From positions 128,001-192,000 of the forward strand of contig CBDHHL010000049.1 in assembly GCA_965263355.1 (NCBI GenBank): a stretch of DNA of 64,000 nt. The letters are read 5' to 3'. Both the position numbers and the translations under genes were made by a program. Each line of letters opens with the position of its first letter. Within the stretch, counting starts at the first letter, position 1. Below the pieces are notes generated by a model. The model did not search any database. It worked only from the letters and a program-made list of their open reading frames with translations, and was not told where the DNA came from. Below are positions 12,166 to 51,398 of this stretch, in pieces. Origin of the DNA: Leptolyngbyaceae cyanobacterium (lineage in GTDB: Bacteria; Cyanobacteriota; Cyanobacteriia; Phormidesmidales; Phormidesmidaceae).

Positions 12166-12170
12166 TTCTG

Positions 12171-14804: not shown

Positions 14805-14833
14805 ATCAGTTTTTGTCAGGTAAATGTTCAGGT
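14805..14833 (-). promoter_or_regulatory. ACCTGAC-type direct-repeat array upstream of the lipase-cdsA-pssA-psd operon
   Basis: Minus strand reads ACCTGAAcatttACCTGACaaaAACTGAT, with spacings of 12 and 10 bp. Confidence 0.6.
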
Positions 14834-14972
14834 ATTGCCTAAAAAAAGATTTATAATGATGCCGACCTCGGTAATTCGATTGCATGTAATAACCTAACTC
14901 GTTGCAAAATCAGGCTAACTTCAACCCCTGATCCACATGTAACTTTTAGAACCTTCACAGTGAGTGCAGTTT

Positions 14973-16247: not shown

Positions 16248-16286
16248 ACCTGACAAAACCTGACTATTGACCAGACAAAACCTGAC
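16248..16286 (+). promoter_or_regulatory. ACCTGAC direct-repeat array upstream of the MFS/RND operon
   Basis: ACCTGAC 16248, ACCTGAC 16258, ACCAGAC 16270, ACCTGAC 16280 (spacing 10-12-10). Confidence 0.7.
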
Positions 16287-18325: not shown

Positions 18326-18337
18326 CATTTCAGGACC

Positions 18338-19798: not shown

Positions 19799-19803
19799 TT
19801 CCC

Positions 19804-23017: not shown

Positions 23018-23056
23018 ACCTGACTAAACCTGACATTAAACCTGAATAAACCTGTA
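23018..23056 (+). promoter_or_regulatory. ACCTGAC direct-repeat array upstream of the FAAL-PKS operon
   Basis: ACCTGAC 23018, ACCTGAC 23028, ACCTGAA 23040, ACCTGTA 23050 (spacing 10-12-10). Confidence 0.7.
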
Positions 23057-23145
23057 TTTTCACCACTGAAAATTTGCGTGATTATGGTGGAAACACAAAA
23101 TACAGCGACACTAACACAAGTTCTCCTAGAAAGGACAGAGTCAAC

Positions 23146-34300: not shown

Positions 34301-37300
34301 AATGTGGTCCTCAACCGATTCTGTTGGGCATGGGTCGGCAATGCCTCCCCGAGGATGAGGATAAAGTATTGCTGCCGTCTCTCAGACCTGGTCAAAATGA
34401 TTGGCAACAGATGCTTTCCAGTTTGAGCCAGCTCTATGTCCGTGGTGTGAGCATTGATTGGATGGGCTTTAACCAAGACTCTCCTCAACATTGCAAAGTC
34501 TCCCTACCCACCTATCCTTTCCAACGTCAACGCTATTGGATTGATGTTCAAGCCTCGACGAATGCACTGACGGCTAAAACGGCCCATGATGAAACTTTGC
34601 ATCCCTTGCTTGGCCATAAAGTCTCTCTGGCCGGTTCTCAGGTTTACTTTGAATCCGTTGTGAGCTCTCATCAACCGACCTATCTAGCCGAGCATCGCGT
34701 CTTCAACCGGACATTGTTCCCCACCACAGCCTACCTGGAAATGGGGCTGGCTGCTGGCCATCAAGTGTTTCCAGAACAACCCTTCACCCTTGAGCAATTC
34801 GAAATCGAACGGGGTCTGATTCTGCCTGAATCCAGTCCTACCCAAGTGCAAACCCTGATTACGCGTGATGCCCCAGATAGCTATCGCTTCGAAATCTATA
34901 GCTTATCCCCTGCCTCAGATGCTGGTACAGAATCTCAATGGCAACGCCATAGCCACGGCCTGATTCGGTTAGCGTCTCAAGTCGTGTCAATTCCCACCGT
35001 CTCGCTGAGCCAGTATCAAACCGAGTGTTCACATCGCTGTGAGGTCGCCGCCCATTACCGTCGTTTCTGCCAGCAACAGATTGACTACGGCGATAGTTTC
35101 CAGGGTATTCAGCAGCTGTGGCAAGGCGATGGCAAAGCCCTGGCTCAACTACAACTGCCCATGGCCCTGGTGGGCGATAGTGCCGACTATGATATCCATC
35201 CAGCCCTTTTAGATGCAGCTCTGCAGGTTCTCTCTGCCCTCGATGCTGGAACCGAGACAACCACCACTTATCTGCCCGTTGCGATTGAGCGATTTGAGGT
35301 CTATCGCTGCCCTGGATTGAGCCTATGGGTACTCGGCCAATGGCAAACGACAGAACAATCTACTGGACTAAGTGCACAAGTCCAACTGCTGGATAAGACC
35401 GGTCAGCTGATTGCCCGCATCGATGGCCTGCATGTCAGGGCTGCTACTCCTGCCGCACTGCTAGGTCAACCCCGCAATTTGGACCCGCATCTCTACCAGG
35501 TTGACTGGCGGGTCCAATCTCGCTTCGGTCGCTTGACACCCCCAGACTTCTTGCTGTCGCCACCTGAACTCTCCACTACCTTAGCCCCTCAGGTGCAGAC
35601 CCTGTTGTTAGATAATCCCACCCTGCAACAGCATTATGCCACCCTGTTACCCTCGCTAGAACAGGTCAGTGTAGACTTCATCGTGAAGGCTTTCGGCCAA
35701 CTGGGCTGGGCCTATCAACCGGGTGAACAGTTGCAACTGGAGAAGATTGCTCAACGCCTGGGCATCGTACCCCAACATCATCGCTTGCTGGCTCGCTTGC
35801 TGGAGATTCTCTCAGATGTAAAAATCCTCACCCCTCAGCAAGACTCCTGGCAGGTGCTACAAGCGTTACCCGCGACTGAGGCCATCACCCCTCCAACTCC
35901 ATTAGTGGCAGCGTCCGCCGAATGGCTGCTGCTGGAGCGCTGTGGCAGCCAGCTAGCAGCGGTCTTACGAGGGGCTATCGACCCTGTACAGCTGGTGTTC
36001 CCATCGGGTGACTTGAGCAATGCCACTCGACTTTATCAAGACTCACCCGCCGCTCACAGCTTTAATCGCCTGGTGCAGCAGGTTGTTACAACGGCTGTAA
36101 CCCATGCTCCGGCTACTCGAGGCCTGCGTATCCTTGAAATTGGTGCCGGTACCGGTGGAACGACCAGTACCCTACTGCCTCACTTACCGACTGCACAAAC
36201 TCGCTATTGCTTCACCGACATTGGTGCGCTCTTCACCCAGAAAGCCCAGGAACGCTTTGGCCATGACTATCCCTTTGTCAGCTATCAAACTCTTGATATC
36301 GAACAAGACCCGGCTGAGCAGGGCTTTGCAGAGCAGCAACAGGATATTGTGATTGCAGCCAATGTGTTGCATGCCACCTGTGACCTGAAGCAAACCTTGA
36401 GCCATGTGCGACAGTTGCTGGCACCGGGAGGGATGCTGGTACTGCGGGAGGGAACGGCTCGTCAACGCTGGGTAGATTTGATTTTTGGTCTACTAGATGG
36501 CTGGTGGCGATTTAGCGATCGCAACCTACGCCCCGATTATCCCCTGCTCAATTGCACCCAGTGGCAACAGCTCTTAATGGAAACGGGGTTTGAGTCAGTC
36601 ACAGTCCTACCGGATGAGAGTGCTGGAGATGATCTGGGCCAAGCGGTAATTGTTGCCAAAACCAGTGCTCAAACAAGTACAGACTTATCCAAAACTGATA
36701 AATCTGTGATTAAGCCTGCTAAGGGTTGGTTACTCTTAGCCGATCAGCAAGGGATAGCACAACAGCTGGTGCAGCGATTGGCAGCCCAAGGAGAGGCTTG
36801 CACTGTGGTACAGCAGGTACTGCAAGATGTCGCAGGATACCAGCACCTGTTAACCCAGCTACAGACACCAGAAACGGAATTGCAAGGGGTGATTCATTGT
36901 TGGGGGCTAGATGTGCCTGATAGTCAGACAATGGATGCCCCAGACTTAGCAGCAGCCTCTCAGTTAGGCTGTGGTACCCTATTGCCCTTAGTACAGGTGC
37001 TGGTCCAGCAAAAAGCGATCGCAACACCCAGACTCTGGATTGTCACTCGTGGGGCTCAGCCAGTGGGTGCATCCCCTGAGAATTTATCGGGGGTGAGTCA
37101 GGCCTCAATGTGGGGCATGGGCAAAGTAATTGGCCTGGAGCATCCGGAACTCTCCTGCACCCATATTGACCTGGATGGGAATGCGACCATTGCAGCCCAA
37201 GCCGAGAGTCTCTGGGCTGAGATCTGGTCTCAAGACAAGGAAGACCAGGTGGCGCTGCGACAAGATCAACGCTTTGTTGCCAGACTGGCTAAAAATGAGC

Positions 37301-38574
37301 AGTTGACAATGGCTGACAACGAAGCTGCGATGCCCCGACCAGAGGGTACCTATCTGATTACTGGAGGCCTGGGTGGCTTGGGTCTATTGGTGGCCGATTG
37401 GTTTATTGACCATCAGGTTAAACATCTGGTTCTGACCAATCGACGCGAACCCAGCGAATCGGTCCAGGCCCAGCTCCAGAAATTGAGGGAGAAAGGGGCT
37501 CAGGTCACCGTTGCCCAGGCCGATGTCACCGATGCAGTCGTAATGGCTACCGTCATTGACAACATCCGAAAATCGGGTTTTCCGCTCAAGGGCATCATCC
37601 ATGCCGCTGGAGTGCTCGACGACGGCACCCTATTGCAACAAAGCTGGCCTAAGTTTGAGGCGGTGCTCGGCCCAAAGGTACAAGGAGCCTGGAATCTGCA
37701 TCAGCTGACCCAAACAGAGTCAATTGACTTCTTTATCTCGTTCTCTTCAGCTGCTGCATTACTCGGCTCTCCCGGTCAAGCCAATCATTCAGCCGCCAAT
37801 GCCTTTCTCGATGGTCTGGCGCACTACCGACGGTCCCTAGGCTTAGCCGGTCAGAGTTTTCAGCTAGGAGCCGTTACCCGCATAGGAGAAGCGGCTGAGC
37901 GGGGGGCTGATGTTAGGGCACAAAAACAGGGAATGGGGGTGATTGAGCCTCAACAGGTATTAACCATCCTGGAGCGATTGTTACGCCAACCTCAAGTCAC
38001 TCAGGTTGGTCTTGTCCCCATTGATTGGAAATTAGCGCAGCTACCTGTCCAGTGGCATCGTTGGCCCTACTTATCAGATTGGACAAAGTTGAGTCAAAGC
38101 AACGCCGTTGACCAGACATCAGCAGTCATCAAGCAACTGCAATCAACGCCTGTCCAAGAACAAAAGGTACTTTTAGTTGCTTTTATCCGTCAGCAAGTGG
38201 CCCAAGTACTGGGCCTGAAGGATGCTCAACAGTTAGACATCTATCAGTCTCTCTTTCATATCGGTCTGGACTCTTTGATGGCGGTGGAACTAAGAAGCCA
38301 ATTACAAAACCAATTGAACCTATCGTTAAGCTCAACCCTGTTGTTTAACTACCCCACCATTGATGCATTAACAAACTACATTCTGAGTGAAAAATTATCG
38401 ACTACATCACAAAGCTCAGAAAGTGATGCATTCAACAACAGCTCCAGGACAAATTTACAGGCTGAGGAAAGTCTAAAACAATCTCGTTCAGATGCGCTAG
38501 ACGGGCTTTCAGAGGATGAACTAGCGGATCTACTCAGCAAAAAGATTCATCAACGTAGAGGAAATAACAAATGA
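25318..38574 (+). CDS. Bimodular cis-AT type I PKS: (KS-AT-DH-cMT-KR-ACP) x2
   Basis: Two each of DTACSSS/HGTGT (KS), GHSxG and HAFH (malonyl AT), H...HPALLD (DH), ILEIGAGTGG (MT), GGLGGLG/HAAGVLDD (KR), GMDSL or GLDSL (ACP). Confidence 0.96.
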   Translation: MNNSKMTHASDPIAIIGTACRVPGACNLDDFWHLLSTGQDQISILSPQRWSLARPHLSAQDLESIRKQSPVCWGGFLSQVDQFDPSFFGISAREAVSMSPQHRVLLEVAWETLEDAALRPDQLNKTNTGVFLGLTNRDYSHLAWNHHDLKDPYLTTGNSSSIAANRISYLLNLSGPCVVVDTACSSSLVAIHLACQSIRAGESTMAFAGGVNLTLDPDLMFNLAAGGFQAPDGRCKTFDSRADGYVRGEGAGLVLLKPLAQALTDGDPIHALILGSAVNQDGRTQGITAPKPTAQEAVVRQAYQQAGVSPGQVQYVETHGTGTKLGDPIELGALGKVLKDGRNPDDVCLVGAVKTNIGHLEAASGIAGLIKVVLSLQHRQIPPNLHFQSPNPYIPFGKLPVEVPQALTAWPSYGDDAIAGVSAFSFGGTNAHVVLQAAPHREKPVIQIERPLHLLTLSAKSTTALKDFAQRYEKHLQYHTEQTLGDICYTANIGRAHHDCRLAIVSTSKTDLMAKLKAFELGEDNSSFLEEQRSPNTQSNIAFLFTGQGSQYVDMGRELYETQLTFGRALDQCADILHEVNVPLLEVLYDQAEGDEQKINNTAYTQPALFALEYALYKLWQSWGINPSVVMGHSVGEYVAACVAGVFSLEDGLKLIAARGRLMQQLPSGGGMVSLMASVEQVKTVIADQPDGTIAAINGPQSTVISGPIPALQTMVEQFARAGVKGKFLSVSHAFHSPLMAPMLAEFEQVAKQVSYSPPKLKLISNVTGQVVTEAVATPDYWCEHILAPVNFAAGMERLQQEEINIFLECGPQPVLLGMGRQCLSEDEEIAWLPSLRPGQNDWQQILSSLGKLYICGVNIDWIGFDQDYPKRRKVTLPTYPFQRQHYWIEAVKQSMIGQRADKLIHPLLGQQLFLPTSQEIHFEANLNKNSPAYLGDHLVFDQLVFLGAGYLEMALAASLQIFQCQTLVLEDVSFVKALVLPSNGEDVSLHLVMKLESDQFERSIATWQIFSLNNQSGTEESDWILHARGKAIPQQADVATAPTCDLTALKARFPEEFNQNVYDQALGLSYGPLLRHIKQIWLAQGEALGHIQLQDMLALETEQYVLHPALLDSCFQTMFTLVGNHDQSFHISENPYLPVGISRLTLHRMPTTEVWSQGLLNTTDLANSQQSSTDINLFTPQGEAVVTIEGLKARKTSIQELFSHQPQEPQPVYQVEWRSQARFGRLASPAFLLSSTELNTALALQVQTLLLENSTLHQQYADLFPFLESASLHFIVNALNTLGWTYPPGEQLQLKQVAQRLGIVPQHHRLLGRLLEILVEADILTHQQGQWQVLKSLPTAETIPPSSSLVTESAEWQLLERCGSQLAAVLRGAIDPVQLVFPGGDLSHATRLYQDSPTAQSFNRLVQQVVTTAVANCPANRGLRILEIGAGTGGTTSALLPHLSAEKTCYCFTDIGAMFTQKAQERFWEAYPFVTYQTLDIEQNPSDQGFEMQQQDIVIAANVLHATRDLKQTLSHVRQLLAPGGLLVLLEGTARQRWVDLIFGLLDGWWRFSDRDLRPDYPLLNRAQWQQTLTETGFESVTVLPSEGVGDDLGQAVIVAQTDLSAAVESELEPTKGWLLLADQQGVAQQIAQQLEAKGERFIVVSQVPQDMAGYQHLVAQIQTPETELKGVIHCWGLETENIQTMDTQTLADAFRLGCGTLLPLVQALVQQEATPRLWIVTRGAQAVGTVSENLSGVSQASLWGMGKVIALEHPEFHCTCIDLDVDTAVEDQAEQLWAEVWSGESEDQVALRQDERFVARLTRSEPLVPAENEDAMTLSEGTYLITGGLGGLGLLVADWFIDHQAKHLVLVNRSAPSESVQAQLQKFREKGAQITVAQADVTDTSAMATIIDSIRQSDFLLKGIIHAAGVLDDGTLLQQSWSKFATVLGPKVQGAWNLHQLTQSEPLDFFVSFSSVAALLGSPGQANHAAANAFLDRLAHYRQSLGLAGQSFQLGAITQIGKVAERGADIRAQQQGMGIIRPQQVLEVLKQLLRHSGITQIGLVPVDWASAQLPPQWQNWSYLSDLTKVAQETSLGSSSAFMQQLQATAGPEQKSLLTAFVRKQVAQVLGIANPQEINESASFFDLGMDSLTSVEFRNRLQQQLGNSYAVSSTLAFDYPTVNRLATYLAEQLGALPAAAPKQKPIIARSLETDAVAIVGLACRFPGAPDKDAYWQLLTDGIDAIREVPPERWDIDAYYDPDPNAPGKMTTRYGGFIEAIDQFDAAFFGIAPREVIELDPQQRFLLEISWQALEDANIAPETLVGSQTGVYVGISTNDYSQLIARGGEQAIGQYMGTGNAASAAAGRLSYVLGLQGPSLAIDTACSSSLVALHQASHGLLKGDCELALVGGVNAILSPENTIYFSKGRFMAPDGRCKTFDATADGFVRSEGCGVVILKRLSEAERDGNHIYGVIRGSAVNQDGASGGLTVPNGPAQQRVIEQALTIAKIEPESVSYVEAHGTGTSLGDPIEIQALQQVLGQAHSSEQPLWVGSVKTNIGHLEAAAGIASIIKVALSFDHGVIPGQLHFHTPSPRIPWENINIQVVATAQGWPSRRRIAGVSGFAFQGTNAHLVLEGYGPSQVVDATPTEQKNDSSAEPSLMLLPLSGKSEAAVQALAAVYANWLEIHDDIPLKDVCFTAGVGRNHFGYRTTVVAQTQAQFRQGLQQVAAGTVDLQRIQQQPQIAVLFTGQGAQYIDMARELYETQPSFGQTLDQCSEILNAYLESPLLDVLYPDERTEQADDLLNQTAYTQPALFAIEYSLYQLWQSWGITPSVVMGHSIGEIVAACVAGIFSLEDGLKLSAMRGKLMGRLPSGGAMLSVMASVNQVRTLIAERGNITIAAINGPESTAISGEASVVRVVSQQLEAQGIKTKQLQVSHAFHSLLMEPILAEFEQVARQIRYSRPKLKLISNVTGQVVTEEIATPEYWCEHILAPVNFVAGMERLQQEEIDIFLECGPQPILLGMGRQCLPEDEDKVLLPSLRPGQNDWQQMLSSLSQLYVRGVSIDWMGFNQDSPQHCKVSLPTYPFQRQRYWIDVQASTNALTAKTAHDETLHPLLGHKVSLAGSQVYFESVVSSHQPTYLAEHRVFNRTLFPTTAYLEMGLAAGHQVFPEQPFTLEQFEIERGLILPESSPTQVQTLITRDAPDSYRFEIYSLSPASDAGTESQWQRHSHGLIRLASQVVSIPTVSLSQYQTECSHRCEVAAHYRRFCQQQIDYGDSFQGIQQLWQGDGKALAQLQLPMALVGDSADYDIHPALLDAALQVLSALDAGTETTTTYLPVAIERFEVYRCPGLSLWVLGQWQTTEQSTGLSAQVQLLDKTGQLIARIDGLHVRAATPAALLGQPRNLDPHLYQVDWRVQSRFGRLTPPDFLLSPPELSTTLAPQVQTLLLDNPTLQQHYATLLPSLEQVSVDFIVKAFGQLGWAYQPGEQLQLEKIAQRLGIVPQHHRLLARLLEILSDVKILTPQQDSWQVLQALPATEAITPPTPLVAASAEWLLLERCGSQLAAVLRGAIDPVQLVFPSGDLSNATRLYQDSPAAHSFNRLVQQVVTTAVTHAPATRGLRILEIGAGTGGTTSTLLPHLPTAQTRYCFTDIGALFTQKAQERFGHDYPFVSYQTLDIEQDPAEQGFAEQQQDIVIAANVLHATCDLKQTLSHVRQLLAPGGMLVLREGTARQRWVDLIFGLLDGWWRFSDRNLRPDYPLLNCTQWQQLLMETGFESVTVLPDESAGDDLGQAVIVAKTSAQTSTDLSKTDKSVIKPAKGWLLLADQQGIAQQLVQRLAAQGEACTVVQQVLQDVAGYQHLLTQLQTPETELQGVIHCWGLDVPDSQTMDAPDLAAASQLGCGTLLPLVQVLVQQKAIATPRLWIVTRGAQPVGASPENLSGVSQASMWGMGKVIGLEHPELSCTHIDLDGNATIAAQAESLWAEIWSQDKEDQVALRQDQRFVARLAKNEQLTMADNEAAMPRPEGTYLITGGLGGLGLLVADWFIDHQVKHLVLTNRREPSESVQAQLQKLREKGAQVTVAQADVTDAVVMATVIDNIRKSGFPLKGIIHAAGVLDDGTLLQQSWPKFEAVLGPKVQGAWNLHQLTQTESIDFFISFSSAAALLGSPGQANHSAANAFLDGLAHYRRSLGLAGQSFQLGAVTRIGEAAERGADVRAQKQGMGVIEPQQVLTILERLLRQPQVTQVGLVPIDWKLAQLPVQWHRWPYLSDWTKLSQSNAVDQTSAVIKQLQSTPVQEQKVLLVAFIRQQVAQVLGLKDAQQLDIYQSLFHIGLDSLMAVELRSQLQNQLNLSLSSTLLFNYPTIDALTNYILSEKLSTTSQSSESDAFNNSSRTNLQAEESLKQSRSDALDGLSEDELADLLSKKIHQRRGNNK

Positions 38575-41500
38575 TGGATATTTCTACTAATCGCGATTAT
38601 CGTCCTCTCTTGAAAGAGGCTCTGCTAGAGATTGAAGCACTCCAGTCGGAACTAAAAGCTGTTCAGCACACCCAAACCGAACCTTTAGCCATTATCGGCA
38701 TGGGGTGTCGCTTCCCTGGTGGTGGTAATAATCCAGAAGCCTTCTGGCAACTGCTGAAAAACGGTTCTAATCTTTGTGTTGACATTCCGGCGTCGCGTTG
38801 GGAAATTGACGCGTTCTATGACCCTGACCCAGCAGCGCCCGGTAAGATTTACACTCGCATGGGCCATTTCCTCAACGTTCCCATTGACAGATTTGATCCT
38901 CAGTTCTTTGGGTTGTCTCCCCGCGAAGCCAGGAGCCTGGATCCCCAGCAACGATTGCTCCTGGAAGTGTGTTGGGAAAGTCTGGAACATGCAGGCCTGG
39001 ATGCCACCGGTCTCCTCGCTTCGAAAACGGGTGTCTTTGTCGGTTTGATGAATGTTGAATATCCGAGGCTGGCGTTTCCCTCCTACGAGGCCATTGATAT
39101 GCATTCGGCCTCGGGAAATGCACCCAGTACGGCGGCGGGTCGTATTGCTTACACCTTTGGTTTTCAAGGACCTACCCTGGCCATTGATACCGCTTGCTCA
39201 TCATCGCTTGTGGCTGTGCATATGGCCTGTCAGAGTCTGCGGTTGGGTGAATGCGATATGGCGTTGGCCTGTGGCACCAATTTGATGTTGGGTCCTGAAA
39301 TGTATATCGGCGAATGTCGCAGTCAGATGCTGTCGACGGACGGCTTGTGTAAGACCTTTGATATTGCCGCCGATGGTTTTGGTCGTGGAGAAGGGTGTGG
39401 GGTGGTTGTGCTCAAACGACTCTCTGATGCCCAGCGCGATCGCGATACTATCCTAGCTTTGATCCGGGGCTCAGCGGTGAATCAAGATGGGCGTAGTGGC
39501 GGGTTAACGGTACCCAATGGCTTGGCTCAAGAGCAGGTGATTGGCGCTGCGCTCAACAATGGCCAGGTTGAGCCCCATCAATTGCAGTATGTCGAAGCCC
39601 ATGGCACCGGAACGTCTCTAGGAGACCCGATTGAAATTACGGCCCTGGGCAATGTGTTTGGTCAGAGTCATTCCCAAGAGCAGCCTTTGATGGTGGGATC
39701 AGTCAAGACCAATATTGGTCATACCGAAGCGACGGCGGGGATTGCAGGCTTGATTAAGTTGGTGTTGCAGTTGCAGCACGATGAGATCGCACCGCACTTA
39801 AATTTGAGTACCTCCAATCCCTACATTGATTGGGAGAAAGCACCCGTCACAATTCCCACAACACTGACCCCATGGCCTCGGAGGCAGACACCGCGATTGG
39901 CGGGGGTGAGTTCCTTTGGGTTTAGTGGCACCAATGCCCATGTGATTGTTGAAGAGGCACCGATTGCTGTACCCACTCAGCCAGATGTAAGTCCAGAGTC
40001 ACCATGGCAGATATTAACCCTATCGGCCAAAGAACAAACAGCCCTGCAGCAGCTGGCTAAGCAGTATGAGAGCTATTTAGAGACAATGCCAGCCGATGAC
40101 CTGGCGGATGTGTGCTTTAGTACTCGGGTCGGTCGAGCCCATTTTGAGAAAAGATTGGCCTTAGTGGGTCAAGATAAAGGTGATTTTTTAGCTCAACTCA
40201 GAGGCTGGTCATCTGAAGAACAATCTAGTACAGGGACTGGGAAAAAAGGCAAAACCGCGGTTCTGTTCACAGGACAGGGGTCCCAGTATGTGGATATGGG
40301 GCGTCAATTATACGAGACTCAACCACTGTTCCGGCAGACCCTCGACCACTGTAACACCATTCTCCAAGCCTACCTAGATCTAGATATTCTCAATATCCTC
40401 TACCCAGATACCTCAGAAACAGGGCAGGCACAAGACCAGCCCCTACAGTCTGCTTCCCCCTCACCCCTCGACCAAACCACATACACCCAGCCAGCATTAT
40501 TTGTCATTGAGTATGCACTCTATAAACTCTGGCAATCTTGGGGGATCACACCGTCTGTGGTGATGGGCCATAGCATCGGTGTGATAGTGGCCGCCTGTGT
40601 TGCTGATGTCTTTAGCCTGGAAGATGGACTAAAGCTGAGTGCGATGCGGGGAAAACTGATGGGGCAGTTACCCTCTGGGGGAGCGATGCTCTCGGTAATG
40701 GCCTCCGTTGATCAGTTGGGAACTCTCATTGCCGAAAGAGGCAACGTCACCATAGCCGCGATCAACGGTCCTGAGAGTACGGTTATTTCTGGAGAACAAT
40801 CCGCTGTTCGAGCCGTTGGGCAACAATTAGCAGCTCAGGGGATTAAGACCAAGCAGCTGCAGGTTTCCCATGCCTTCCATTCACCTTTGATGAAACCGAT
40901 GCTGGCCGAGTTTGAACAGGTGGCCAAACAGATTAACTATGCTCCCCCCAAACTCAAACTAATCTCCAATGTCACCGGACAGATTGTTACCGAAGAAGTA
41001 ACCACCCCTGAGTATTGGTGTGATCATATTCTGGCCCCAGTCAACTTTGCCGCTGGCATGGACAGACTACAGCAAGAGGAGATAGACGTCTTCCTCGAAT
41101 GTGGGCCTCAACCGATTCTGTTGGGGATGGGCCGTCAATGTTTGCCTGAGGATGAAGAGAACGCCTGGCTACCCTCCCTAAGAGTTGGGCAAGATGATTG
41201 GAAACAGATGCTCTCTAGTCTGAGGCAGCTCTATATCCGCGGGGTAGCCATTGATTGGAGAGGCTTTGATAAGGACTATCCCCAACGCCGCAAAGTCTCC
41301 CTACCCACCTATCCCTTCCAACGTCAACGCTATTGGATTGATGTTCCTCCTCAACATCGAATGCTGCCTGCTCATGCACTTGTGGGCAGCAAATTAGAGC
41401 TGGCTTCTACCGGACAAACTGTTTACCACCAAATCATTAATCTGGCCCAACAACCTTGGATTGGTGACCACCGGGTGTATGACACCGTCGTCATTCCAGG

Positions 41501-44147
41501 CGTCAGCTACATCGCCATGACCCTGGCAACTGTTGAGCTGCCCGCCACGGTTGACGCTGTTAGTTTCCTCGAACCCCTATTCCTGGCAACGCCCAAGGGT
41601 GAACGTGAAACTGAATTGATAATAGGGCCTGTTGCAGGAGAGGACACTCGTCGGGTCGAGGTCTTTAGTCGTGATGTCGCTAACCAAGATGAGTGGCGAC
41701 ATCATGCCAATCTGACTGTACAGAATACTCCACAACCATTAGCCCCTCTGAGTATCAATATTGCTAGTCTAAAAGAACAACTAGACCCGATTGCTGCCGA
41801 TACCCTGAATGAATTCTATGAGGGTATTTCAGTTACTTATGGTCCCATGCTATCAGCGGTTCAACAGGCCTGGGTCGGTGATGGGGTTGCCCTGTCGGAA
41901 ATCGTCGTGCCCGAGGCACTGGTTTCCCAGTTGTCTGATGAACCCATTCATCCTGTCTTGCTTGATGCCTGCACCCGACTAGCCGCAGATCTATTCGACG
42001 TTGATGATGAACCTGGGGTGTTTTGGGCTCCCTGGCAAGTGGAAAGAGTGACTCTCATGCGTCCGGCTCCTCGACACTTCTATACCTATGTGCATCAACC
42101 CACACGCATTAATGAACAATTACAGACGCGTGCCCATAACATTCATCTGCTTGATGAGGCTGGTCAGACATTTGGATATATCGATGGCTTTACCATCAAG
42201 CGGGCCCCACGGGAGCGCTTCTTAAAGTATTTGCAAGCCGATACCTATCAATGGCTCTATCAACTGCAATGGAAAGGATCAGTGCTGCCGCCAACGACAA
42301 CGCTACCTGCTTCAGGAACCTGGTTATTGTTAGTTCCAACAAAAGCATGGGCCGAACTGCTTAGAGATATGCTTGCTCAACAGCAACAATCCTGTGTAGT
42401 AGTCTCCATCGGCGAAACATTCCAGCAGTTGGATGAATATCACTATCAAGTCTGTCCTACCCAAGAAAATACCTTTGAAAAACTTTTGCAACAGCTGCAA
42501 GAGAATAACATTACGCTAAAGGGCATCGTCCATCTATGGAGCCTGACTAGCGACCTTGAGAACTTAACTGCCAGCTTGAAGATAACCTGTGGCAGTACAC
42601 TACATCTGCTGCAAAGTTTACTATCTCGGTCACTATCCCCTGCGCTCTGGCTGGTTACCCAGGGCAGCCAACATTTGGGACGAGAGCAAGAGGCTCAAAT
42701 CGAGCAAACGCCGCTTTGGGGCCTCGGTCGCGTAATTGCGCTAGAACATCCTGAGGTGCACTGCCACTTGCTCGATTTGGATGCTGCCTCTCCAATGGCA
42801 GAAGCGGTGTCAATTGTGGTTCAGGAACTCTTGAATTCTGACACAGAAAATCTGATTGCTTATCATCAGACTCAACGCCATGTGGCTCGCCTCCACCCCT
42901 ATTCCACCAATGCAGACGCACTGCCTCCAAGTAATGAAGCTCTCGTCCAAGCAGATGCCAGCTACTTAATTGCCGGCGGCTTGGGTGCTCTAGGTCTGCA
43001 GGTTGCCCAATGGCTTGGGCAATTGGGGGCAACCTCGCTGGTGCTGATGGGAAGACGCCCGCCCTCAGAGAGTGCAGCCTCTATCATCAATGTGCTCAGG
43101 CAAGCTGGCGTGCATGTTTCGGTGGTGCAGGCAGATGTGGCGAATGCGGCAGATGTGGCCACGATTCTGAGTGAGATTGACACTCAGCTACCCCCCTTAA
43201 AAGGCATTATTCATGCCGCTGGGGTAATTGCCGATGGCCTGCTACAAAATCAGAGCTGGTCCCAATTTGAACTCGTTATGGCGGCCAAAGTGTTAGGTAG
43301 TTGGCATCTGCACCAGTTGACTCAGGATAAACCGTTAGACTTTTTCGTCTGCTTTTCGTCAGCGGCTTCTCTAATTGGTTCCTCGGGTCAAGGCAATTAT
43401 GCGGCAGCCAATGCCTTTATGGATGGCTTAGCCCATCATCGACGTAGCCAGGGTCTACCAGGATTGAGCATCAATTGGGGTCCCTGGGCAGGAGGTGGCA
43501 TGGCCGCTCAGCTGAGCCATCAACATCTAAGACGGTTTGAGCAGGCCGGATTCCAACCGCTTGATGTTGAGGTCGGTCTTTCAGTGTTACAGCAGTGTCT
43601 TCAGCTGGGGATGCCTCAAGTGGGTGTATTGCCGATCAATTGGTCAAAGTGGTCAGCCCAAGCCACCGCCGCGACGCCGCTGCTCAAAACAGTGCTGCCT
43701 GAGAGTGTCCAACCGTCTCAGGCAGGATGGTTGTTGCAACAGCTAGAAACGACTCCGATGGCACAGCGTCGGACAGTTTTGATGGCTCAGGTGCGGTTAC
43801 AGGTGGCTCAGGTGCTGGGGATTTCTGATTCAACTATCCTGGATGCCCATACAGGCTTATTTGACCTGGGAATAGATTCCCTGATGGTTACCGAACTAAG
43901 AAATCGATTACAGAGTTGTTTAGGGTGTCGATTGTCGGCGACAGATTTGTTTAATTACAACACCCTAGATGACTTAGTGAACTATTTGGTTCACGAGGTT
44001 TTTCAATGGGATGAGATTACCTTAGAGAACCCAATTCAGACAAAAGACGAGGTACTCAGGAATGGCATTACTGAAATTGAGATTATGGATCTCGATGAGC
44101 TAAATGCCTGTATTTCTGAGGAATTAGAAGAATTAGAAACTTTATAA
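38571..44147 (+). CDS. Type I PKS module: KS-AT-DH-KR-ACP
   Basis: DTACSSS, GHSIG/HAFH, HRVYDTVVIP...HPVLLD, GGLGALG...[14 protein letters not shown]. Overlaps the upstream stop. Confidence 0.96.
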   Translation: MMDISTNRDYRPLLKEALLEIEALQSELKAVQHTQTEPLAIIGMGCRFPGGGNNPEAFWQLLKNGSNLCVDIPASRWEIDAFYDPDPAAPGKIYTRMGHFLNVPIDRFDPQFFGLSPREARSLDPQQRLLLEVCWESLEHAGLDATGLLASKTGVFVGLMNVEYPRLAFPSYEAIDMHSASGNAPSTAAGRIAYTFGFQGPTLAIDTACSSSLVAVHMACQSLRLGECDMALACGTNLMLGPEMYIGECRSQMLSTDGLCKTFDIAADGFGRGEGCGVVVLKRLSDAQRDRDTILALIRGSAVNQDGRSGGLTVPNGLAQEQVIGAALNNGQVEPHQLQYVEAHGTGTSLGDPIEITALGNVFGQSHSQEQPLMVGSVKTNIGHTEATAGIAGLIKLVLQLQHDEIAPHLNLSTSNPYIDWEKAPVTIPTTLTPWPRRQTPRLAGVSSFGFSGTNAHVIVEEAPIAVPTQPDVSPESPWQILTLSAKEQTALQQLAKQYESYLETMPADDLADVCFSTRVGRAHFEKRLALVGQDKGDFLAQLRGWSSEEQSSTGTGKKGKTAVLFTGQGSQYVDMGRQLYETQPLFRQTLDHCNTILQAYLDLDILNILYPDTSETGQAQDQPLQSASPSPLDQTTYTQPALFVIEYALYKLWQSWGITPSVVMGHSIGVIVAACVADVFSLEDGLKLSAMRGKLMGQLPSGGAMLSVMASVDQLGTLIAERGNVTIAAINGPESTVISGEQSAVRAVGQQLAAQGIKTKQLQVSHAFHSPLMKPMLAEFEQVAKQINYAPPKLKLISNVTGQIVTEEVTTPEYWCDHILAPVNFAAGMDRLQQEEIDVFLECGPQPILLGMGRQCLPEDEENAWLPSLRVGQDDWKQMLSSLRQLYIRGVAIDWRGFDKDYPQRRKVSLPTYPFQRQRYWIDVPPQHRMLPAHALVGSKLELASTGQTVYHQIINLAQQPWIGDHRVYDTVVIPGVSYIAMTLATVELPATVDAVSFLEPLFLATPKGERETELIIGPVAGEDTRRVEVFSRDVANQDEWRHHANLTVQNTPQPLAPLSINIASLKEQLDPIAADTLNEFYEGISVTYGPMLSAVQQAWVGDGVALSEIVVPEALVSQLSDEPIHPVLLDACTRLAADLFDVDDEPGVFWAPWQVERVTLMRPAPRHFYTYVHQPTRINEQLQTRAHNIHLLDEAGQTFGYIDGFTIKRAPRERFLKYLQADTYQWLYQLQWKGSVLPPTTTLPASGTWLLLVPTKAWAELLRDMLAQQQQSCVVVSIGETFQQLDEYHYQVCPTQENTFEKLLQQLQENNITLKGIVHLWSLTSDLENLTASLKITCGSTLHLLQSLLSRSLSPALWLVTQGSQHLGREQEAQIEQTPLWGLGRVIALEHPEVHCHLLDLDAASPMAEAVSIVVQELLNSDTENLIAYHQTQRHVARLHPYSTNADALPPSNEALVQADASYLIAGGLGALGLQVAQWLGQLGATSLVLMGRRPPSESAASIINVLRQAGVHVSVVQADVANAADVATILSEIDTQLPPLKGIIHAAGVIADGLLQNQSWSQFELVMAAKVLGSWHLHQLTQDKPLDFFVCFSSAASLIGSSGQGNYAAANAFMDGLAHHRRSQGLPGLSINWGPWAGGGMAAQLSHQHLRRFEQAGFQPLDVEVGLSVLQQCLQLGMPQVGVLPINWSKWSAQATAATPLLKTVLPESVQPSQAGWLLQQLETTPMAQRRTVLMAQVRLQVAQVLGISDSTILDAHTGLFDLGIDSLMVTELRNRLQSCLGCRLSATDLFNYNTLDDLVNYLVHEVFQWDEITLENPIQTKDEVLRNGITEIEIMDLDELNACISEELEELETL

Positions 44148-44159: not shown

Positions 44160-47100
44160 ATGAACAAGATTTCTGCTCAATCATCTGAACAACTTCAATC
44201 TGCTCAGAATGTCCTGTTGGCGTTGCGTAATGCTAAAAACAAACTTAAAGCTATTAAACAAGCTAAGACAGAACCGATTGCCATCATTGGCTTAGGGTGT
44301 CGTTTCCCAAAATCCAATAGTCCAGCTGATTTCTGGCGGTTACTGGAACAGGGCATGGATGCTGTGACTGAGGTGCCTGCAGAGCGTTGGGACATTGACC
44401 AATATTATGACCCCGACCCAGAGGTTCTGGGCAAAATGCATACCCGCCATGCCAGCTTCCTGTCCGACGTAGATCAATTTGATGCTGACTTTTTCAAAAT
44501 CTCTCCTCGCGAAGCCAAGAGTCTCGATCCTCAACATCGATTGTTGTTGGAAGTGTGTTGGGAAAGTCTCGAAGATGCAGGGGTGTCGCCACTGGCGTTG
44601 AAAGGTACTCAAACCAGTGTCTTTATTGGCATGATGACCCATGACTATGGACACCTTGCGGCCCAGACTGCAGATATCCATACAGGTTTTGGCAATGGGG
44701 CTCCCCTGGCCGCTGGTCGGATTGCCTATACCTTAGGTCTTAATGGACCTACATTGACGGTCGAAACAGCCTGTTCTTCTTCTCTAGTTGCTTGTCATTT
44801 GGCGTGTCAGAGTTTGCGTAACCAAGAGAGTAATCTGGCCTTGGTCGGTGGTATCAACCTGATGTTGACACCCGAGATGAGTATCCTTGAGGCTCAAGCT
44901 CAGATGAATTCACCCGATGGTCGGTGCAAAACCTTTGATGAGGGTGCTGATGGCTATGGGCGCGGTGAGGGCTGTGGCATTGTGGTGCTCAAGCGATTGA
45001 GCGATGCCCAAGCCGATGGTGACCGAATTTTAGGGTTGATTCGGGGGTCTGCCATTAATCATGATGGCCCCAGTAGTAGCTTGACAGTGCCTAATGGATT
45101 AGCGCAAAAAACATTGATCGAGCAAGCCTTAGCCAATGCCAATGTGCAGGCAGCTCAGGTGGACTATGTGGAATGTCATGGCACTGGAACAGCCTTGGGA
45201 GATCCCATTGAGGTCGATGCGTTAGTCAAGGCTTACGGTCAGCATCGCGCTTTGAATCATCCGATCATGCTTGGTTCTGTTAAGACGAACATTGGTCATA
45301 CCGAAGGGGCTGCCGGTATTGCGGGATTAATCAAGGTAATTTTGTCTTTACAACACGAGAAGATTCCACCGCATCTGCATCTGAAGCAGCCCAATCGACG
45401 CATTGCCTGGGATGACATACCTGTGGTTGTGCCGACGGCAATCCAACCCTGGCAACGGGGAGAGAAGACTAGACTGGCTGGGGTGAGTTCCTTTGGCCTC
45501 AGTGGCACCAATGCCCATGTGATTGTCGAAGAAGCGCCTTTATCCCGACCGATGCCAGCCCCCCTGGAGCGTCCCTGGCATGTGCTGACCCTATCCGCCA
45601 AAACAGAGGATGCGTTGCAAGCACTGGTTGAGCAGTATGAGCGATACTTCAACGCTCACCCAGAGTTAACACTTGCAGACATTGGCTATACGGTTAATAC
45701 CGGTCGAGCACACTTTCAAAATCGTTTAGCGATTGCGGGAACTTCTTTAGCTGAGGTGTCTGAGAAACTGAGACAACTTAGAGAAGCAAAACAGACACAG
45801 GGAACCAACCTGGGGCAATTTGATCACCGGCAGGCTGCACAGATAGCTGTTCTGTTTACGGGACAAGGTTCGCAGTATGTAGGCATGGCCCGAGAACTTT
45901 ATAAGACGCAACCGACCTTCAGACAGACGCTTGAGCAGTGCGATGAGATTCTTAATGCTTATCTCGATCTGCCCTTGCTCGATATTCTCTATCCAGATGA
46001 GAGAACAGAACAAGCCGATGCTCTATTGCATCAGACGGCCTATACCCAACCGGCTCTATTTGCCATTGAGTATGCACTCTATCAACTCTGGCAATCTTGG
46101 GGCATTGCACCTTCTGTGGTGATGGGGCATAGCATTGGTGAGATAGTAGCGGCTTGTGTTGCAGGTGTCTTCTCTCTCGAAGATGGCTTGAAGCTGAGTG
46201 CGATGCGGGGCCAGCTGATGCAACAAATACCCGCTGGTGGCGCAATGCTATCGGTGATGGCCTCCGTTGAGCAGGTTAGAACTATCATTGCTGATTCAGA
46301 AAGAAACAACGTTGAGATCGCGGCTATCAATGGCCCTGAGAGTACGGTTATTTCAGGTGAAGCATCTGCCGTTCAATCGATTGCTCAACACCTCGAAGCT
46401 CAGGGAATTAAAACCAAACAACTTCAAGTCTCCCATGCTTTCCATTCACCGTTGATGGCACCGATGCTGGCTGAGTTTGAGCAGGTGGCTCAGCAGATCA
46501 GCTATTCACTGCCTCAGCTCAAACTGATTTCCAATGTCACCGGACAGGTGGTGACTGAGCAAGTGGCGACGCCTGAGTATTGGTGTGAGCATATTCTGGC
46601 ACCAGTGAACTTTTCTGCTGGCATGGAGTGTCTGCAGCATGAAGAGATTAATATCTTGCTTGAATGTGGGCCTCAACCGATTCTGCTAGGAATGGGACGA
46701 CAGTGTCTACCAGCGGATGAGGAGAACGCTTGGTTACCGTCTCTTAGACCGGATCAGAGCAACTGGCAGCAGATGCTCTCCAGCTTAGGTCAGCTCTATA
46801 TCCGTGGGGTGAACATTGATTGGGAGGGCTTTGAGACGGACTATCCCCAACGCCGTAAAGTCTCCCTACCCACCTATCCCTTCCAGCGTCAACGTTACTG
46901 GGTGGAAACTCAACCCAATCCAACTCGAATGATGGCCGCCAGAGATCGCATCCATCCACTGCTGGGTCAACGATTACAATTAGCAGGCCGCTGCCAAGAC
47001 ATTTTCTTTGAAACCAGCCTGAGTGCGGCGAGTCCGGTCTACTTGTCAGACCATCGTGTCTTGGACCAGGTGGTTCTCCCAGGAGCCGCTTATGTAGAGA

Positions 47101-50100
47101 TGGTTCTGGCGGCTGGAGCCCAAATTTTTCAATCCCACTGCCTGGTATTAGAACAGGTCTTTATGGCTCACCCCCTGCTCCTATCAGCCACTCAATCTAC
47201 CACAGTACAGGTTGTCCTGAGTCCAACCGAAAAAGGCGTTTACACATTTGAGGTGGCCAGCTTGAAAACGGCTTCTGACGCTGACAGTTGGCAAGTCCAT
47301 GTCTCGGGGAAGCTACGCGCAGGAGGCACCCGACCGGACAAAGTGATGTTAGAGCAATGGCATGACCGAGGGGCACCGCTGCCATTGGAGCCATTTTACC
47401 GACAGTCTCAAGCGCAGGGGCTGGCGTTTGGCGAGTGCTTCCAATCTTTAACACAAGCCTGGACTGAGTCTGGCGAAGGGTATGCCCAGGTGAAATTGCC
47501 CCTAGCTATTGGGGACGCTGATAACTATCATCTGCATCCCATTCTGCTGGATGGCGGCTTTCAATTAACCGGGGCCATGCTGGCAGTCGGTAACCAAACC
47601 CAGTCAAACTCGCTGTATTTGCCCGTGGCCATTGAGCGTCTGGAGGTCTATGGCCAGGCGGGACCGCAACTATGGGTGCAAGCAAACGTACGTGATGCGG
47701 ATACTGGGAACAGTTTGAGCAGTGACTTTCGGTTGGTAGACCCAACGGGGAACGTTGTTGCTCAAGTGGAGGGTTTCACCCTTCGCCAGGCTACTCGTCA
47801 AGGACTGCAGCGAGCTTTGGAACCAGATTTGAGTGATTGGTTCTACACGCTAGACTGGCGGCTGCACCCCCTGGAGAGATCGCACCCACTACCATCTGGA
47901 GGTCGCTGGCTGGTATTCACCTCAGGCGGAGACTTGGGTGAGCAATTACTTCAACAGCTTCAGCAGCAAGGTCATACCTGCATCCAAGTTGCTGTGGGTT
48001 CCAGCTATCAACGCTTGAGCGACGCATACTACCAGGTGAATCCTCTAGAACCCGATGATTTTCGGCAACTGCTGCAAGCGTGTTGTCACGAGCAGCCGCA
48101 AGGGATTATCCACCTGTGGTCCCTGGAAAGTGCCGCAGTGGCAGAGTTGGATACGGATGGCTTGTACCAGTCACAGGTACTCAGCTGCGGCAGTGTGCTG
48201 CATCTGTTGCAGGGATTGTCGTCGGCTCAGGCCGTGCCCCTGTACTTGGTGACCCAAGGGGCACAATCAATCCGCTCTCATCCAACAGAGGTACAGGTGC
48301 AGCAAGCTCCCTTGTGGGGCTTGGGGCGAGTCATTGCGATGGAATATCCGGCGATTAAGTGTCAGCGCTTAGACTTAGACCCCAATGCTTCTGTAGAGAC
48401 GAATGTGGGTGCGATCGCAGCTGAACTGCATAGCAGCCATGACGAAGATCAAGTCGCCTATCGCCACAATCAGCGCTTTGTGGCCCGCCTGCTGCGACAG
48501 CGAGAAGCCGCTCAAAGAGCGGGGCAACGTGCCATCCCTCAAGGGCAACCCTATCAGTTAAAGCTGTCAGCCTATGGCTCCCCCGACCACCTCAGTCTGC
48601 AACCCATGACCCGTCGTGCTCCTGCCGCTGGGGAAGTGGAAGTGCAGATGCAAGCGGTCGGTTTGAACTTTCGCGATGTCCTGAACGCCCTCGGCGTGCT
48701 CAAGGATTACTATGCCGAGCACTTTGGGATTACCGACCCGCAGCAGTTAACCTTTGGATTTGAAGGAGTGGGGCGCATTGTGGCGCTGGGAGCAGAGGTT
48801 ACACATCTGCAGATCGGCGATGAGGTGATAGTGACGATGATACCGGATGGCTTCAGCAGCCATGTCACCACAAAAGCCGCCTGGGTGTTCAAAAAGCCAC
48901 CACAGCTTAGTGCCACTGCCGCTGCCACGCTTCCCTTGGTATTTTTAACTGCTCAGTACGGGTTGAGTCAGTTGGCCCAGCTGCAGCCAGGGGAGCGGGT
49001 GCTGATCCATGCAGCGGCAGGTGGCGTGGGCCAGGCCGCCGTACAAATTGCCCAACGGCTGGGGGCTGAGATTTACGCCACAGCCAGTCCAGGAAAATGG
49101 GCATTTCTTCGCTCCCAGGGCATTCAACACATCTTCAACTCACGCAGCCTGACGTTTGCCGACCAGATAAAGCAAGCGACTGGCGGCGTGGGAGTGGATG
49201 TCGTCCTCAACAGTTTGAATGGCGAACATATTCCCAAGAGCCTGGATGTTTTAGCTCCAGGCGGGCGATTTATTGAAATCGGCAAGGCTGGCATCTGGAG
49301 TACCGCACAAGTGCGCCAGCAGCGGCCTGATGTGGCCTATTTCCCCTTTGATCTAGGTGAAGTGGGTCAAGCCAATCCGCCGTTGATGCGAGCAATATTT
49401 GAGCAATTTCAGCAGGCGGTTACAGAAGGTGACCTAAAATCACTACGCCAGCAGGTATATCCGATTACCCAAGTGGTCGAGGCGTTCCGGTTGATGCAAC
49501 GGGGTCAGCACCTAGGTAAGGTGGTGGTGACGCTACCAGATGTTGAGGCCGCTGAAACCGGTGTCCAAAGTGAAGGCAGTTACCTGATCACGGGTGGATT
49601 GGGAGCCCTGGGGCTACAGTTGGCACAAGCATTAGCAGACCAGGGAGCCCGTTCCTTGGTGCTGATGGGACGTCGTTCGCCCTCCGCTCAAGCCCAAACT
49701 GTGATTACGGCACTGCAGACCCAGGGGATTAAGGTGAGTGTGGAGCTTGCGGATGTAGCCGATTTTCCAGCCGTCGCTCAGATGATGGCGAAAATTGAGG
49801 CCGAACTCCCTCCGTTACGGGGCGTGGTCCATGCCGCTGGAGTCCTGGAGGATGGTCTCCTACAGCAGATGAGCTGGCCCAGTTTTACCAAGGTGATGGC
49901 CCCCAAGGTGCTAGGTGCTTGGAATTTACATCAGCTGACACAGCAGCAGCCATTAGATTTCTTTGTCTGCTTCTCTTCAATCGCAGCCCTGATGGGAAAT
50001 GCCACTCAGGGAAACTATGCGGCCGCGAATACGTTTCTCGATGCCCTGGCTCATCATCGTCGAGTCAGGGGATTGCCCGGCTTAAGTATCAATTGGGGGC

Positions 50101-51398
50101 CTTGGGCAGCGGACGGCATGGCAGCCTGCTTAGGCACACAGTATCAAAGTCATCTGCAAGCCTTGGGCATTGCATCCATGACTCCCCAACAGGGCCTTAA
50201 ATCATTCACTCAGTTGTTGTCAGAACCCGACACGCAAGTTGGTGTATTCTCGATTAATTGGTCTAATTTTTTGAAACACCTACCCGGTAGAGTAAATCCT
50301 CCGTTTTTAGAAGAATTTGCTTCTAATGTAGTCGTTGAGACTAAAAATGATCGCCTCATTGAGCAATTGAGAACAGCTCCAGCAGATGAAAAAGAGAATA
50401 TCCTAACCCCTTATCTGCAAAATAAGATTGCGCGGGTTTTAGGGATGACAGCGTCCCTAATAGATGTTGAAGAACCACTTAATCAGATGGGACTTGATTC
50501 TCTGATGACGATCGAGGTACGTGCCCAAATTCAAAGAGAGTTGACCGTGGATTTGCCCATCGAAAAGCTCATAGAGGGGCCTAGTATTACTCAAGTCGCT
50601 ATATTACTGCTTGAGCAATTGGCGTTGACCGATGTTAGTGCATCAACCCAGCCAGATTTAACGGTTCACCCTGAAACTCACGAGGCTGCAGCGACTGAAC
50701 CTACCGAAGACCTTTTGACTGGAGAGCCTAAAGCGGTTCTACCAGGCCCTAGAAATTTAATTGCCCGTGTTATCCTCTGGATTTTTGGCTTTCTGACCCG
50801 ATTCATCTGGTCCATTGAAGTCGTTGGCCAGGAACACCTTTCACCCGAACCGCCTTTTATTCTTTGTGCTAACCATGAATCGCATTTTGATTCGCTATGG
50901 ATCACGTCGTACTTATCACCACAGCTGCGATATCAATTCTGTACTTTGGCGAAGCAAGAGCATTTTGAAAAACGAATACCGAGACTGTTGATGAGCCTTC
51001 TTGGTAGCATACCTGTGGACCGTCAAGGAGATTCGCTGCCAGCGCTCCGAACAGCAGCCCAAGGATTACTGGCGAAACGACCTTTATTTATTCACCCAGA
51101 AGGGACGCGTACGCGAACCGGTGAACTTTTACCCTTTCGAAGGGGAGCTGCCAAATTAGCCATTGCCACTAGTTCACCGATAATTCCCGTAAGGATCATT
51201 GGGGCGTACGCAATCTTTCCGCCTGATCAGAAATGGCCTAGCTTGTTTGACTGGAAAAACTGGCGACGGCGGCAGCTGAAGATTGTTTTTGGGGCACCAA
51301 TTGAACCATCAAAGCAAGAAAGGGGGTTGCAGGCAGAAATTCTTTTGACTGAACAACTCCGCCAGGCCATCATTGCACTTCACTGTTCTGAGTGTTAA
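44160..51398 (+). CDS. Terminal type I PKS: KS-AT-DH-ER-KR-ACP plus PlsC-like acyltransferase domain
   Basis: [36 protein letters not shown] (ER), [13 protein letters not shown], then [41 protein letters not shown]. No thioesterase GxSxG. Confidence 0.95.

Follow-up and report, generated by a model that had tools for sequence, protein, structure and literature searches.

How is the chain released from a modular polyketide synthase (PKS) whose last module ends in a PlsC-like acyltransferase rather than in a thioesterase (TE)? The question arises from a 64,000-nucleotide stretch of a Leptolyngbyaceae cyanobacterium (assembly GCA_965263355.1, contig CBDHHL010000049.1, positions 128,001 to 192,000), here called the window, in which the third protein of a PKS cluster, PKS3, carries such a domain behind its last acyl carrier protein (ACP). 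From its position, its intact residues, the recurrence of the architecture and the lack of a TE, the fused domain very probably releases the chain onto some acceptor. With less assurance we also think it probable that a dimethyl-trienoyl chain is offloaded onto lysophosphatidic acid (LPA) and that the product is carried on to phosphatidylserine (PS) and phosphatidylethanolamine (PE), perhaps then being trimmed and exported.

The acyltransferase end of PKS3

PKS3 is encoded by a single stop-free open reading frame (ORF). A preliminary description, made from the letters alone, had listed lysophospholipid acyltransferase (LPLAT) blocks after the last ACP. All of them were located in this ORF, with GLDSL slightly upstream of the range it gave, 50740..51398 (Table 1). 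In agreement with the domain type it proposed, Pfam places PF01553 on residues 2219-2346 with an E value of 3.5e-24 and a score of 85.5 bits (cut-off 23). Both HX4D (NHESHFD) and a block III of the form xPEGTR (HPEGTRT) are present.

Searched against solved structures with phmmer, the domain had one match, the Thermotoga PlsC 5KYM (E 2.2e-11). In that alignment His2239, Asp2244, Lys2265 and Arg2317 of PKS3 pair with H84, D89, K105 and R159 of the Thermotoga maritima enzyme. A passage in a preprint (10.1101/2021.02.05.429882) has K105 contacting the acyl-ACP intermediate and R159 holding the LPA phosphate. The catalytic and phosphate-binding residues are invariant across five aligned PKS fusions, and the hydropathy profile has a hydrophobic, amphipathic helix at the N-terminus of the domain. 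An AlphaFold2 model of the ACP-PlsC didomain (52 sequences) has a mean pLDDT of 90.5 and a disordered linker (pLDDT <50 at model residues 106-122). Foldseek matched this model best to 5KYM, an LPA acyltransferase (E 2.4e-11, root mean square deviation 3.2), with GPATs (acyltransferases for glycerol-3-phosphate) and PatA ranking behind. In fold, HX4D, the Lys105 and Arg159 equivalents and the EGTR block, the domain resembles the T. maritima and Escherichia coli PlsC enzymes. Those are free-standing housekeeping enzymes, whereas the window domain is tethered to its donor ACP.

By its domain content the locus is predicted to be a collinear, four-module cis-AT type I PKS primed by a fatty acyl-AMP ligase (FAAL). 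The same-strand genes are closely spaced, with gaps of 12 bases between PKS3 and PKS2, -4 between PKS2 and PKS1 and 51 between PKS1 and FAAL-ACP. All four KS domains have Cys-His-His, all four AT domains have GHSxG and HAFH of the malonyl type, and all four ACPs have the Ser. The complete Pfam list for PKS3 runs to 20 families, none of them a TE, terminal reductase or condensation family, and PF01553 takes the place of the release domain. The TE family PF00975 was found in none of the 28 ORFs scanned out of 47 in the window of at least 100 amino acids, the other 19 being the shorter ones and nearly all overlapping larger ORFs. The earlier statement that no thioesterase is evident in the cluster holds on that count. 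It needs one qualification, since an alpha/beta-hydrolase of the lipase family PF00151 (GHSLG) means that the cluster is not hydrolase-free.

If each domain acts once, the chain would be R-CH=C(CH3)-CH=C(CH3)-CH=CH-CH2-CH2-CO-S-ACP, a 6,8-dimethyl-4,6,8-trienoyl group. FAAL-primed cyanobacterial lines of the malyngamide, jamaicamide and columbamide type likewise start with FAAL-ACP, continue with cis-AT modules and have DH-KR then DH-ER-KR last, giving a 4-enoyl chain. They go on into nonribosomal peptide synthetase (NRPS) modules or end in a TE or reductase, and we know of none with a glycerolipid acyltransferase at its end.

To determine how often this architecture occurs, residues 2060-2412 were searched against proteins of 1326-4221 amino acids. 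PF01553 lies on a PKS in six of the 61 matches (P0003-P0008). P0003 matches at 90% over the region and P0004-P0007 at 37-44%, P0006 being from Candidatus Entotheonella factor. A condensation (C) domain intervenes before PF01553 in P0008. The terminal ACP-PlsC also occurs in a cyanobacterial metagenome-assembled genome (L001, 83%) and in P0068 (94%). Among relatives that carry a name, a partial Leptolyngbya protein comes closest (94%), which points to a cyanobacterial host. A genome scan returned 11 loci, two of which are PKS fusions, L001 and L002 from Entotheonella. Contigs from two studies bridge the ACP-PlsC junction. One of them (run X4, record 14), belonging to an independent study, covers 50466-51072, beginning at the ACP serine and running beyond HX4D; it differs in 23 letters and, within the linker, by an in-frame gap of 6 bases. 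Taken together, the one open frame, the same fusion in several independent assemblies and the bridging contigs refute an assembly or frameshift artefact, to which we assign a negligible chance. The fusion is real, conserved and rare, and the KS...ACP-acyltransferase architecture that the preliminary description had pointed to recurs in other cyanobacteria and in Entotheonella.

The acceptor and the head-group genes

A divergent operon, lipase-cdsA-pssA-psd, lies upstream of the PKS genes (gaps of 39, 55 and -22 bases). Together CdsA, PssA and Psd form the established pathway that turns phosphatidic acid into PS and then PE. Their adjacency favors formation of a phosphatidic acid followed by PS and PE synthesis, and an unusual phosphatidic acid is the simplest explanation for a dedicated CdsA. 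The preliminary description did not mention these genes, which are the main clue to the acceptor. Position, residues, recurrence and the missing TE give good support to its proposal that the fused acyltransferase carries out release. Its choice of glycerol-3-phosphate (G3P) or LPA as acceptor is narrowed toward LPA by cdsA, pssA and psd. G3P, lyso-PE or lyso-PS, and non-phospholipid molecules are possible acceptors.

In the mechanism we propose, FAAL would load a fatty acid and the four malonyl-extending modules would build the chain. The PlsC domain would be held at the membrane by its hydrophobic helix, and a His2239/Asp2244 relay would take the chain off the ACP and place it on the sn-2 hydroxyl of 1-acyl-glycerol-3-phosphate, a release step replacing the thioesterase. 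The resulting phosphatidic acid would then be converted by the CdsA, PssA and Psd of the cluster to PS and PE. With less certainty, the lipase may trim the product to a lyso-lipid or free the acid, and the major facilitator superfamily (MFS) and RND proteins may export it.

Other loci bear on this pairing of genes. Among 42 metagenome loci, 18 of which have their ORFs listed, L024 reads CMAS-ACP-desaturase-FAAL-PKS(KS-AT-ACP-PlsC)-methyltransferase-cdsA-pssA-DUF6962-psd-MFS. L022 and L023, which share the same protein and are counted as one locus, read FAAL/desaturase-(ACP-PlsC)-cdsA-pssA. With the window included, cdsA and pssA are adjacent in three of five independent PKS- or ACP-PlsC loci. 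The genome of a relative, G001, encodes the orthologous PKS-PlsC followed by MFS-membrane fusion protein-RND-FAAL-PKS, and its module after FAAL has an ER and lacks the cMT motif. From locus to locus the ACP-PlsC end is retained and the tail-building genes upstream of it vary. Among 401 sampled genomes of the phylum to which G001 belongs, 26 contain a match to the window Psd (E <= 1e-40). Of the eight psd loci that matched best, which were fetched, four have as a neighbor a long Pfa-type protein with an acyltransferase at its end (in one case with FabA and PF01553 confirmed by Pfam).

The lipase at the head of the lipid operon allows for a different use of the same genes. CdsA, PssA and Psd would make ordinary PS and PE, the lipase would make a lyso-lipid, and the fused domain, still the release domain, would re-acylate lyso-PE or lyso-PS as Aas does, or N-acylate ethanolamine. 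N-acyl-PE formation by a PF01553 enzyme is known. Like the window domain, E. coli Aas (2-acyl-glycerophosphoethanolamine acyltransferase/acyl-ACP synthetase) couples PF01553 to acyl activation and an ACP. A profile search covered 1.84 billion representatives, and a second one was aimed at longer proteins. Of the 120 matches listed in the second search, 106 have an acyl-activating (AMP-binding type) domain and no C domain, being mostly ACS- or FAAL-(ACP)-PlsC proteins with a function akin to Aas. The window domain also matches Aas-family models weakly, at 36-69 bits against whole-protein cut-offs of 886-1349, a shortfall that is partly an effect of length. Aas differs in its domain order, in having no PKS and in its block III, EGRI, where the window domain has EGTR like E. 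coli PlsC. On the clade profile Aas scores 50.6 bits and the window domain 379, but E. coli PlsC is similar to Aas (52.2), so only the block III motif discriminates the two. The window lipase is without a BLAST match in L024, and the dedicated CdsA fits an unusual phosphatidic acid most simply. Remodeling of ordinary lipids is therefore an unlikely account.

The cluster also encodes a stand-alone PF01553 acyltransferase, which gets only a generic name in Atlas and has a divergent promoter region in common with the lipid operon. Two such enzymes in one cluster could mean that the fused domain acylates G3P and the stand-alone enzyme adds the second chain, phosphatidic acid being built without the housekeeping PlsX/PlsY. 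A PlsC-like mycobacterial enzyme in a pathway with reversed acylation order, described in a passage of PMC10593935, counts for this route. The second acyltransferase, however, has no equivalent of Arg159, BLAST finds no counterpart of it in L022-L024 or next to the G001 PKS, and the fused domain is nearer in fold to 5KYM than to the GPATs. We consider the G3P route slightly less likely again than lipid remodeling.

A direct repeat is common to the units of the cluster. ACCTGA-N4-6-ACCTGA, a motif chosen by eye and then tested, occurs 4 times in the window, where 0.04 occurrences are expected, and none of 100 shuffles reached 4. Each occurrence lies between genes, ahead of the lipid, export or PKS unit. 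Of its 19 matches across the G001 genome, 6 adjoin lipase or cdsA genes. Predicted sigma-70 promoters (24 found, 29 expected) and terminators (10 found, 14 expected) were at chance level in the window and were not used. The AraC gene downstream of PKS3 (51496) was rejected as the repeat-binding regulator, as contigs of the relatives diverge at 51484 and in G001 the MFS gene is directly behind the PKS. The same repeat is found at 10467-10515 of L017, ahead of the start of a very large, Tc-type-toxin-like ORF with a Pfam VRP1 match (L017:11475-14000).

Several observations weigh against the mechanism we propose. Two of the five independent loci have no adjacent head-group genes. On the Entotheonella contig (17.8 kb), which encodes desaturases, DUF1365, CMAS, ACP and FAAL, head-group genes are absent. 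G001 has pssA, the lipase and a split cdsA on a contig other than that of the PKS, with insertion sequences around them, and a psd was not found in this incomplete genome. The other four of the eight fetched psd-pssA-cdsA loci have no nearby PKS match. The ACCTGA repeat, besides having been picked by eye, is absent from L022-L024. The PKS3 domain scores 80 bits on the NCBIfam model TIGR00530, under the cut-off of 102.95, and so is not classed as a housekeeping PlsC, which makes it less certain that it is a PlsC but not that it works like one. The structure of the tail is uncertain as well: KR1 and KR2 have His at the usual catalytic Tyr, the usual Pro is missing in DH1 and the LDD motif is missing in KR3. 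PF01553 members are described in passages of PMC12299268 and the SalA preprint as acylating other acceptors, namely OlsA (ornithine lipid), SalA (sulfur aminolipid) and GlcB (glucoselipid). Of the two precedents taken up below, termination by the acyltransferase of Pfa3 is worded "presumably" in a passage of PMC6731297, and acyltransferase activity of ElbD, according to a passage of PMC9131029, was not detected in vitro.

The PKS and head-group genes could accordingly be separate neighbors. The domain would then acylate a non-phospholipid acceptor such as a sugar or an aminolipid, or be a passenger while the lipase or another hydrolase frees the acid. The non-adjacent head-group genes in Entotheonella and G001, the psd loci without a nearby PKS match and the promiscuity of the PF01553 family in its acceptors are what such an arrangement would lead one to expect. 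It fits poorly with the invariant catalytic and phosphate-binding residues of the five PKS fusions, with cdsA-pssA directly downstream in L022-L024 and with the upstream repeat common to the units. We find it as improbable as the G3P route, and LPA remains our preferred acceptor.

Relatives of the ACP-PlsC end and other features

Besides the acyl-activating proteins, the 120 listed matches include six PKS fusions, five C-A-T-PlsC NRPS modules and three fragments or stand-alone proteins. P0003 was common to the long-protein search and the second search. P0104, a PKS of 4519 amino acids, has three KS, five ACP and a C-terminal PF01553 of the same PlsC clade; it has no AT match and is thus of the trans-AT type. 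C-A-T-PlsC modules were seen in P0149, P0151, P0166, P0172, P0289, P0294, P0310, P0312, P0313 and L047:3-2930, two of them named from or as Clostridia-type or gut assemblies. These modules may offload an acyl-amino acid onto a glycerolipid.

A quick tree of 75 rows carried long-branch warnings and serves for broad placement only. For a careful tree we kept 34 of the 75 rows, leaving out long-branch housekeeping, Pfa-type and short-fragment rows and some near-duplicates. Here a FAAL-ACP-PlsC is the sister of the group made up of the window domain and the two cyanobacterial domains nearest to it (98/99). The Entotheonella-type fusions group apart from these (100/100). Monophyly of the 10 cis-AT PKS rows, a set named after the quick tree had been seen and including one partial ACP-PlsC protein placed there by 94% identity, was rejected (approximately unbiased test, p 0.0004). 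This suggests that the carrier-PlsC end moved between assembly lines more than once. The window domain is in a separate clade from the cyanobacterial plsC linked to fabD.

Further clusters of this kind were noted. The Entotheonella locus L021:1-13896 and L024:2498-10660 are PKS-PlsC clusters with a CMAS-type methyltransferase, desaturases, ACP and FAAL. L021 additionally encodes an amine-oxidase-family FAD enzyme and DUF1365, a gene set known from furan or methyl-branched fatty acid pathways. In high-GC genomes of the cyanobacterial phylum (L109, L110, L112, L113, and L064 with L017), Pfa-type synthases ending in an acyltransferase are beside pssA-like, cdsA and psd genes. In G001 such genes are spread over two contigs, one with cdsA-acyltransferase-pfaA and one with pfaD-pssA. 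By gene content these sets are a predicted second route to specialized PS and PE. The Pfa-type clusters L026:602-10660, L038 and L003 hold an ACS-ACP-PlsC gene of the clade of the window domain. L026 also encodes a KR-DH protein with its own PF01553, giving two acyltransferases per cluster.

It is an evenly balanced possibility that the mobile ACP-PlsC cassette is a general, undescribed release module of modular thiotemplate lines, joined several times to cis-AT PKS, trans-AT PKS, NRPS and FAAL proteins. In marine cyanobacteria it would be coupled to cdsA-pssA-psd and give a hidden class of aminophospholipids, PS and PE or the corresponding lyso-lipids, whose tails would be programmed polyketides (methyl-branched trienes in the window, and cyclopropane/methyl- or desaturase-tailored chains at other loci), in organisms thought to have phosphatidylglycerol as their only phospholipid. 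To our knowledge that is the normal state of cyanobacteria, and a literature search for the absence of PE found no statement.

Orthologs of the export unit are beside the PKS-PlsC in L001 and L018 at 71-83% identity. The MFS and EF-hand fusion itself is kept at 80% identity in both, and its architecture suggests calcium-linked control of export. Directly downstream of psd is a TIGR03032/DUF4915 protein (10045-11184, -) with an exact 18-residue tandem duplication near residue 250-285. At the left border of the cluster are two reverse transcriptases of the group II intron type, one carrying maturase and HNH domains and one short, and an IS66 transposase (3936-5687, -; 6366-7196, -; 8730-9878, +). 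At 54244-63941, behind a subtilase, is a same-strand run of ORFs of 111-589 amino acids, the first with a beta-propeller repeat. The remaining ORFs of the run had no significant Pfam or NCBIfam match, and Atlas returned nothing for the 589-residue ORF (55801). No DNA match to the window was found in the plasmid collection.

Table 1. Positions of the features discussed, counted from the first letter of the window
Feature	Position	Strand	Remarks
Phosphatidylserine decarboxylase (Psd)	11254..12192	-	PF02666 E 5e-54; TIGR00163 128.9 bits, over cut-off 111.75
PssA-type CDP-alcohol phosphatidyltransferase	12171..12809	-	PF01066; serine-type models TIGR04217 and TIGR00473 best, both under cut-off
CdsA-type phosphatidate cytidylyltransferase	12865..13752	-	PF01148 E 3.4e-46; NCBIfam PRK11624 under cut-off
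Lipase	13792..14718	-	PF00151, GHSLG
ACCTGA direct repeat between lipid operon and second acyltransferase	14816..14833	-	
Stand-alone second PF01553 acyltransferase	14964..16151	+	395 aa, long cyanobacterial type; HX4D present; FPEGGC
ACCTGA direct repeat upstream of export unit	16248..16286	+	Conserved in G001, 93% over 58 nt
MFS transporter with C-terminal EF-hands	16562-18325	+	Export unit (16562..22920)
Membrane fusion protein	18338-19798	+	Export unit
RND permease	19804-22920	+	Export unit
ACCTGA direct repeat upstream of FAAL-PKS	23018..23045	+	
FAAL-ACP starter	23074..25266	+	Pfam; best single-domain NCBIfam matches are fatty acyl-AMP ligases, under cut-offs
PKS1, modules 1-2	25318..38574	+	(KS-AT-DH-cMT-KR-ACP) x2
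PKS2, module 3	38571..44147	+	KS-AT-DH-KR-ACP
PKS3, module 4	44160..51398	+	KS-AT(malonyl)-DH-ER-KR-ACP-PlsC, 2412 aa
Terminal ACP (a flexible acidic linker of ~48 residues comes after it)	50412..50600	+	GLDSL, Ser2114; PF00550 residues 2085-2147
PlsC/LPLAT domain of PKS3 (C-terminal, residues ~2196-2412)	50745..51398	+	PF01553, phmmer, model, hydropathy; proposed release domain
Motifs of PKS3	GLDSL 50490-50504; NHESHFD 50871-50891; AKQE 50949; IPVDR 51009; HPEGTRT 51093; PFRRG 51132; PIIPV 51177		

Precedents and meaning

Two known systems come close. The myxobacterial polyunsaturated fatty acid synthase Pfa3 (Aetherobacter, Sorangium, Minicystis) has a C-terminal 1-acylglycerol-3-phosphate acyltransferase (AGPAT), and passages in PMC4882568 and PMC8436480 regard transfer to 1-acyl-G3P as chain-terminating. 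Like PKS3, it is a PKS-like synthase fused to PF01553, with a proposed transfer from ACP to 1-acyl-G3P that gives phosphatidic acid. In Pfa3, as portrayed there, the synthase is iterative, the AGPAT is behind DH domains and the ACPs are on another protein. The window line is modular, collinear, FAAL-primed and methylating, its acyltransferase is directly behind its own ACP and its cluster includes head-group genes. Nor does it have the iterative Pfa architecture: no FabA-type DH (PF07977) is listed for any of the three PKS proteins, there are four single-ACP modules rather than tandem ACPs on a separate protein, and TIGR02813 scores 477 bits against a cut-off of 1010. Acyltransferases of two non-myxobacterial Pfa-type clusters, the comparison being made outside the myxobacterial Pfa3 sequences, score 16-23 bits on the window clade profile and sit on a long branch.

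Myxococcus xanthus ElbD is FAR-ACS-ACP-AGPAT according to passages of PMC9131029 and PMC9426513. It too has a carrier protein fused to an AGPAT-like domain and serves glycerolipid synthesis, and most relatives of the window domain are ACS/FAAL-ACP-PlsC proteins. The window differs in having no FAR (neither FAR nor ACS families are on the PKS3 list), in chain building by PKS modules and in the ester lipid expected, that of ElbD being an ether lipid. The Pfa3 and ElbD proposals give the release principle precedent in iterative and single-step systems. Off-loading of this kind, which had been called unusual for a modular PKS, is to that extent less unprecedented. No description of a modular PKS or NRPS ending in PlsC, AGPAT or LPLAT was found in the literature searched, which excluded most subscription natural-product journals, and "not described" is thus provisional. 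What appears to be new, judged from gene content, is acyltransferase chain release on a modular PKS coupled to a pathway for aminophospholipid head groups.

If true, this would add to the logic of modular PKSs a release mode whose product comes off the line as a membrane lipid. Searches aimed at free acids, lactones or amides would overlook such products, and their clusters would be annotated as lacking a release domain. The small in-cis ACP-PlsC didomain would be a direct test system for acyltransferase termination, and a portable end domain could let engineers place PKS-made chains in phospholipids. For cyanobacteria, it would predict PS- and PE-type lipids with designed tails.
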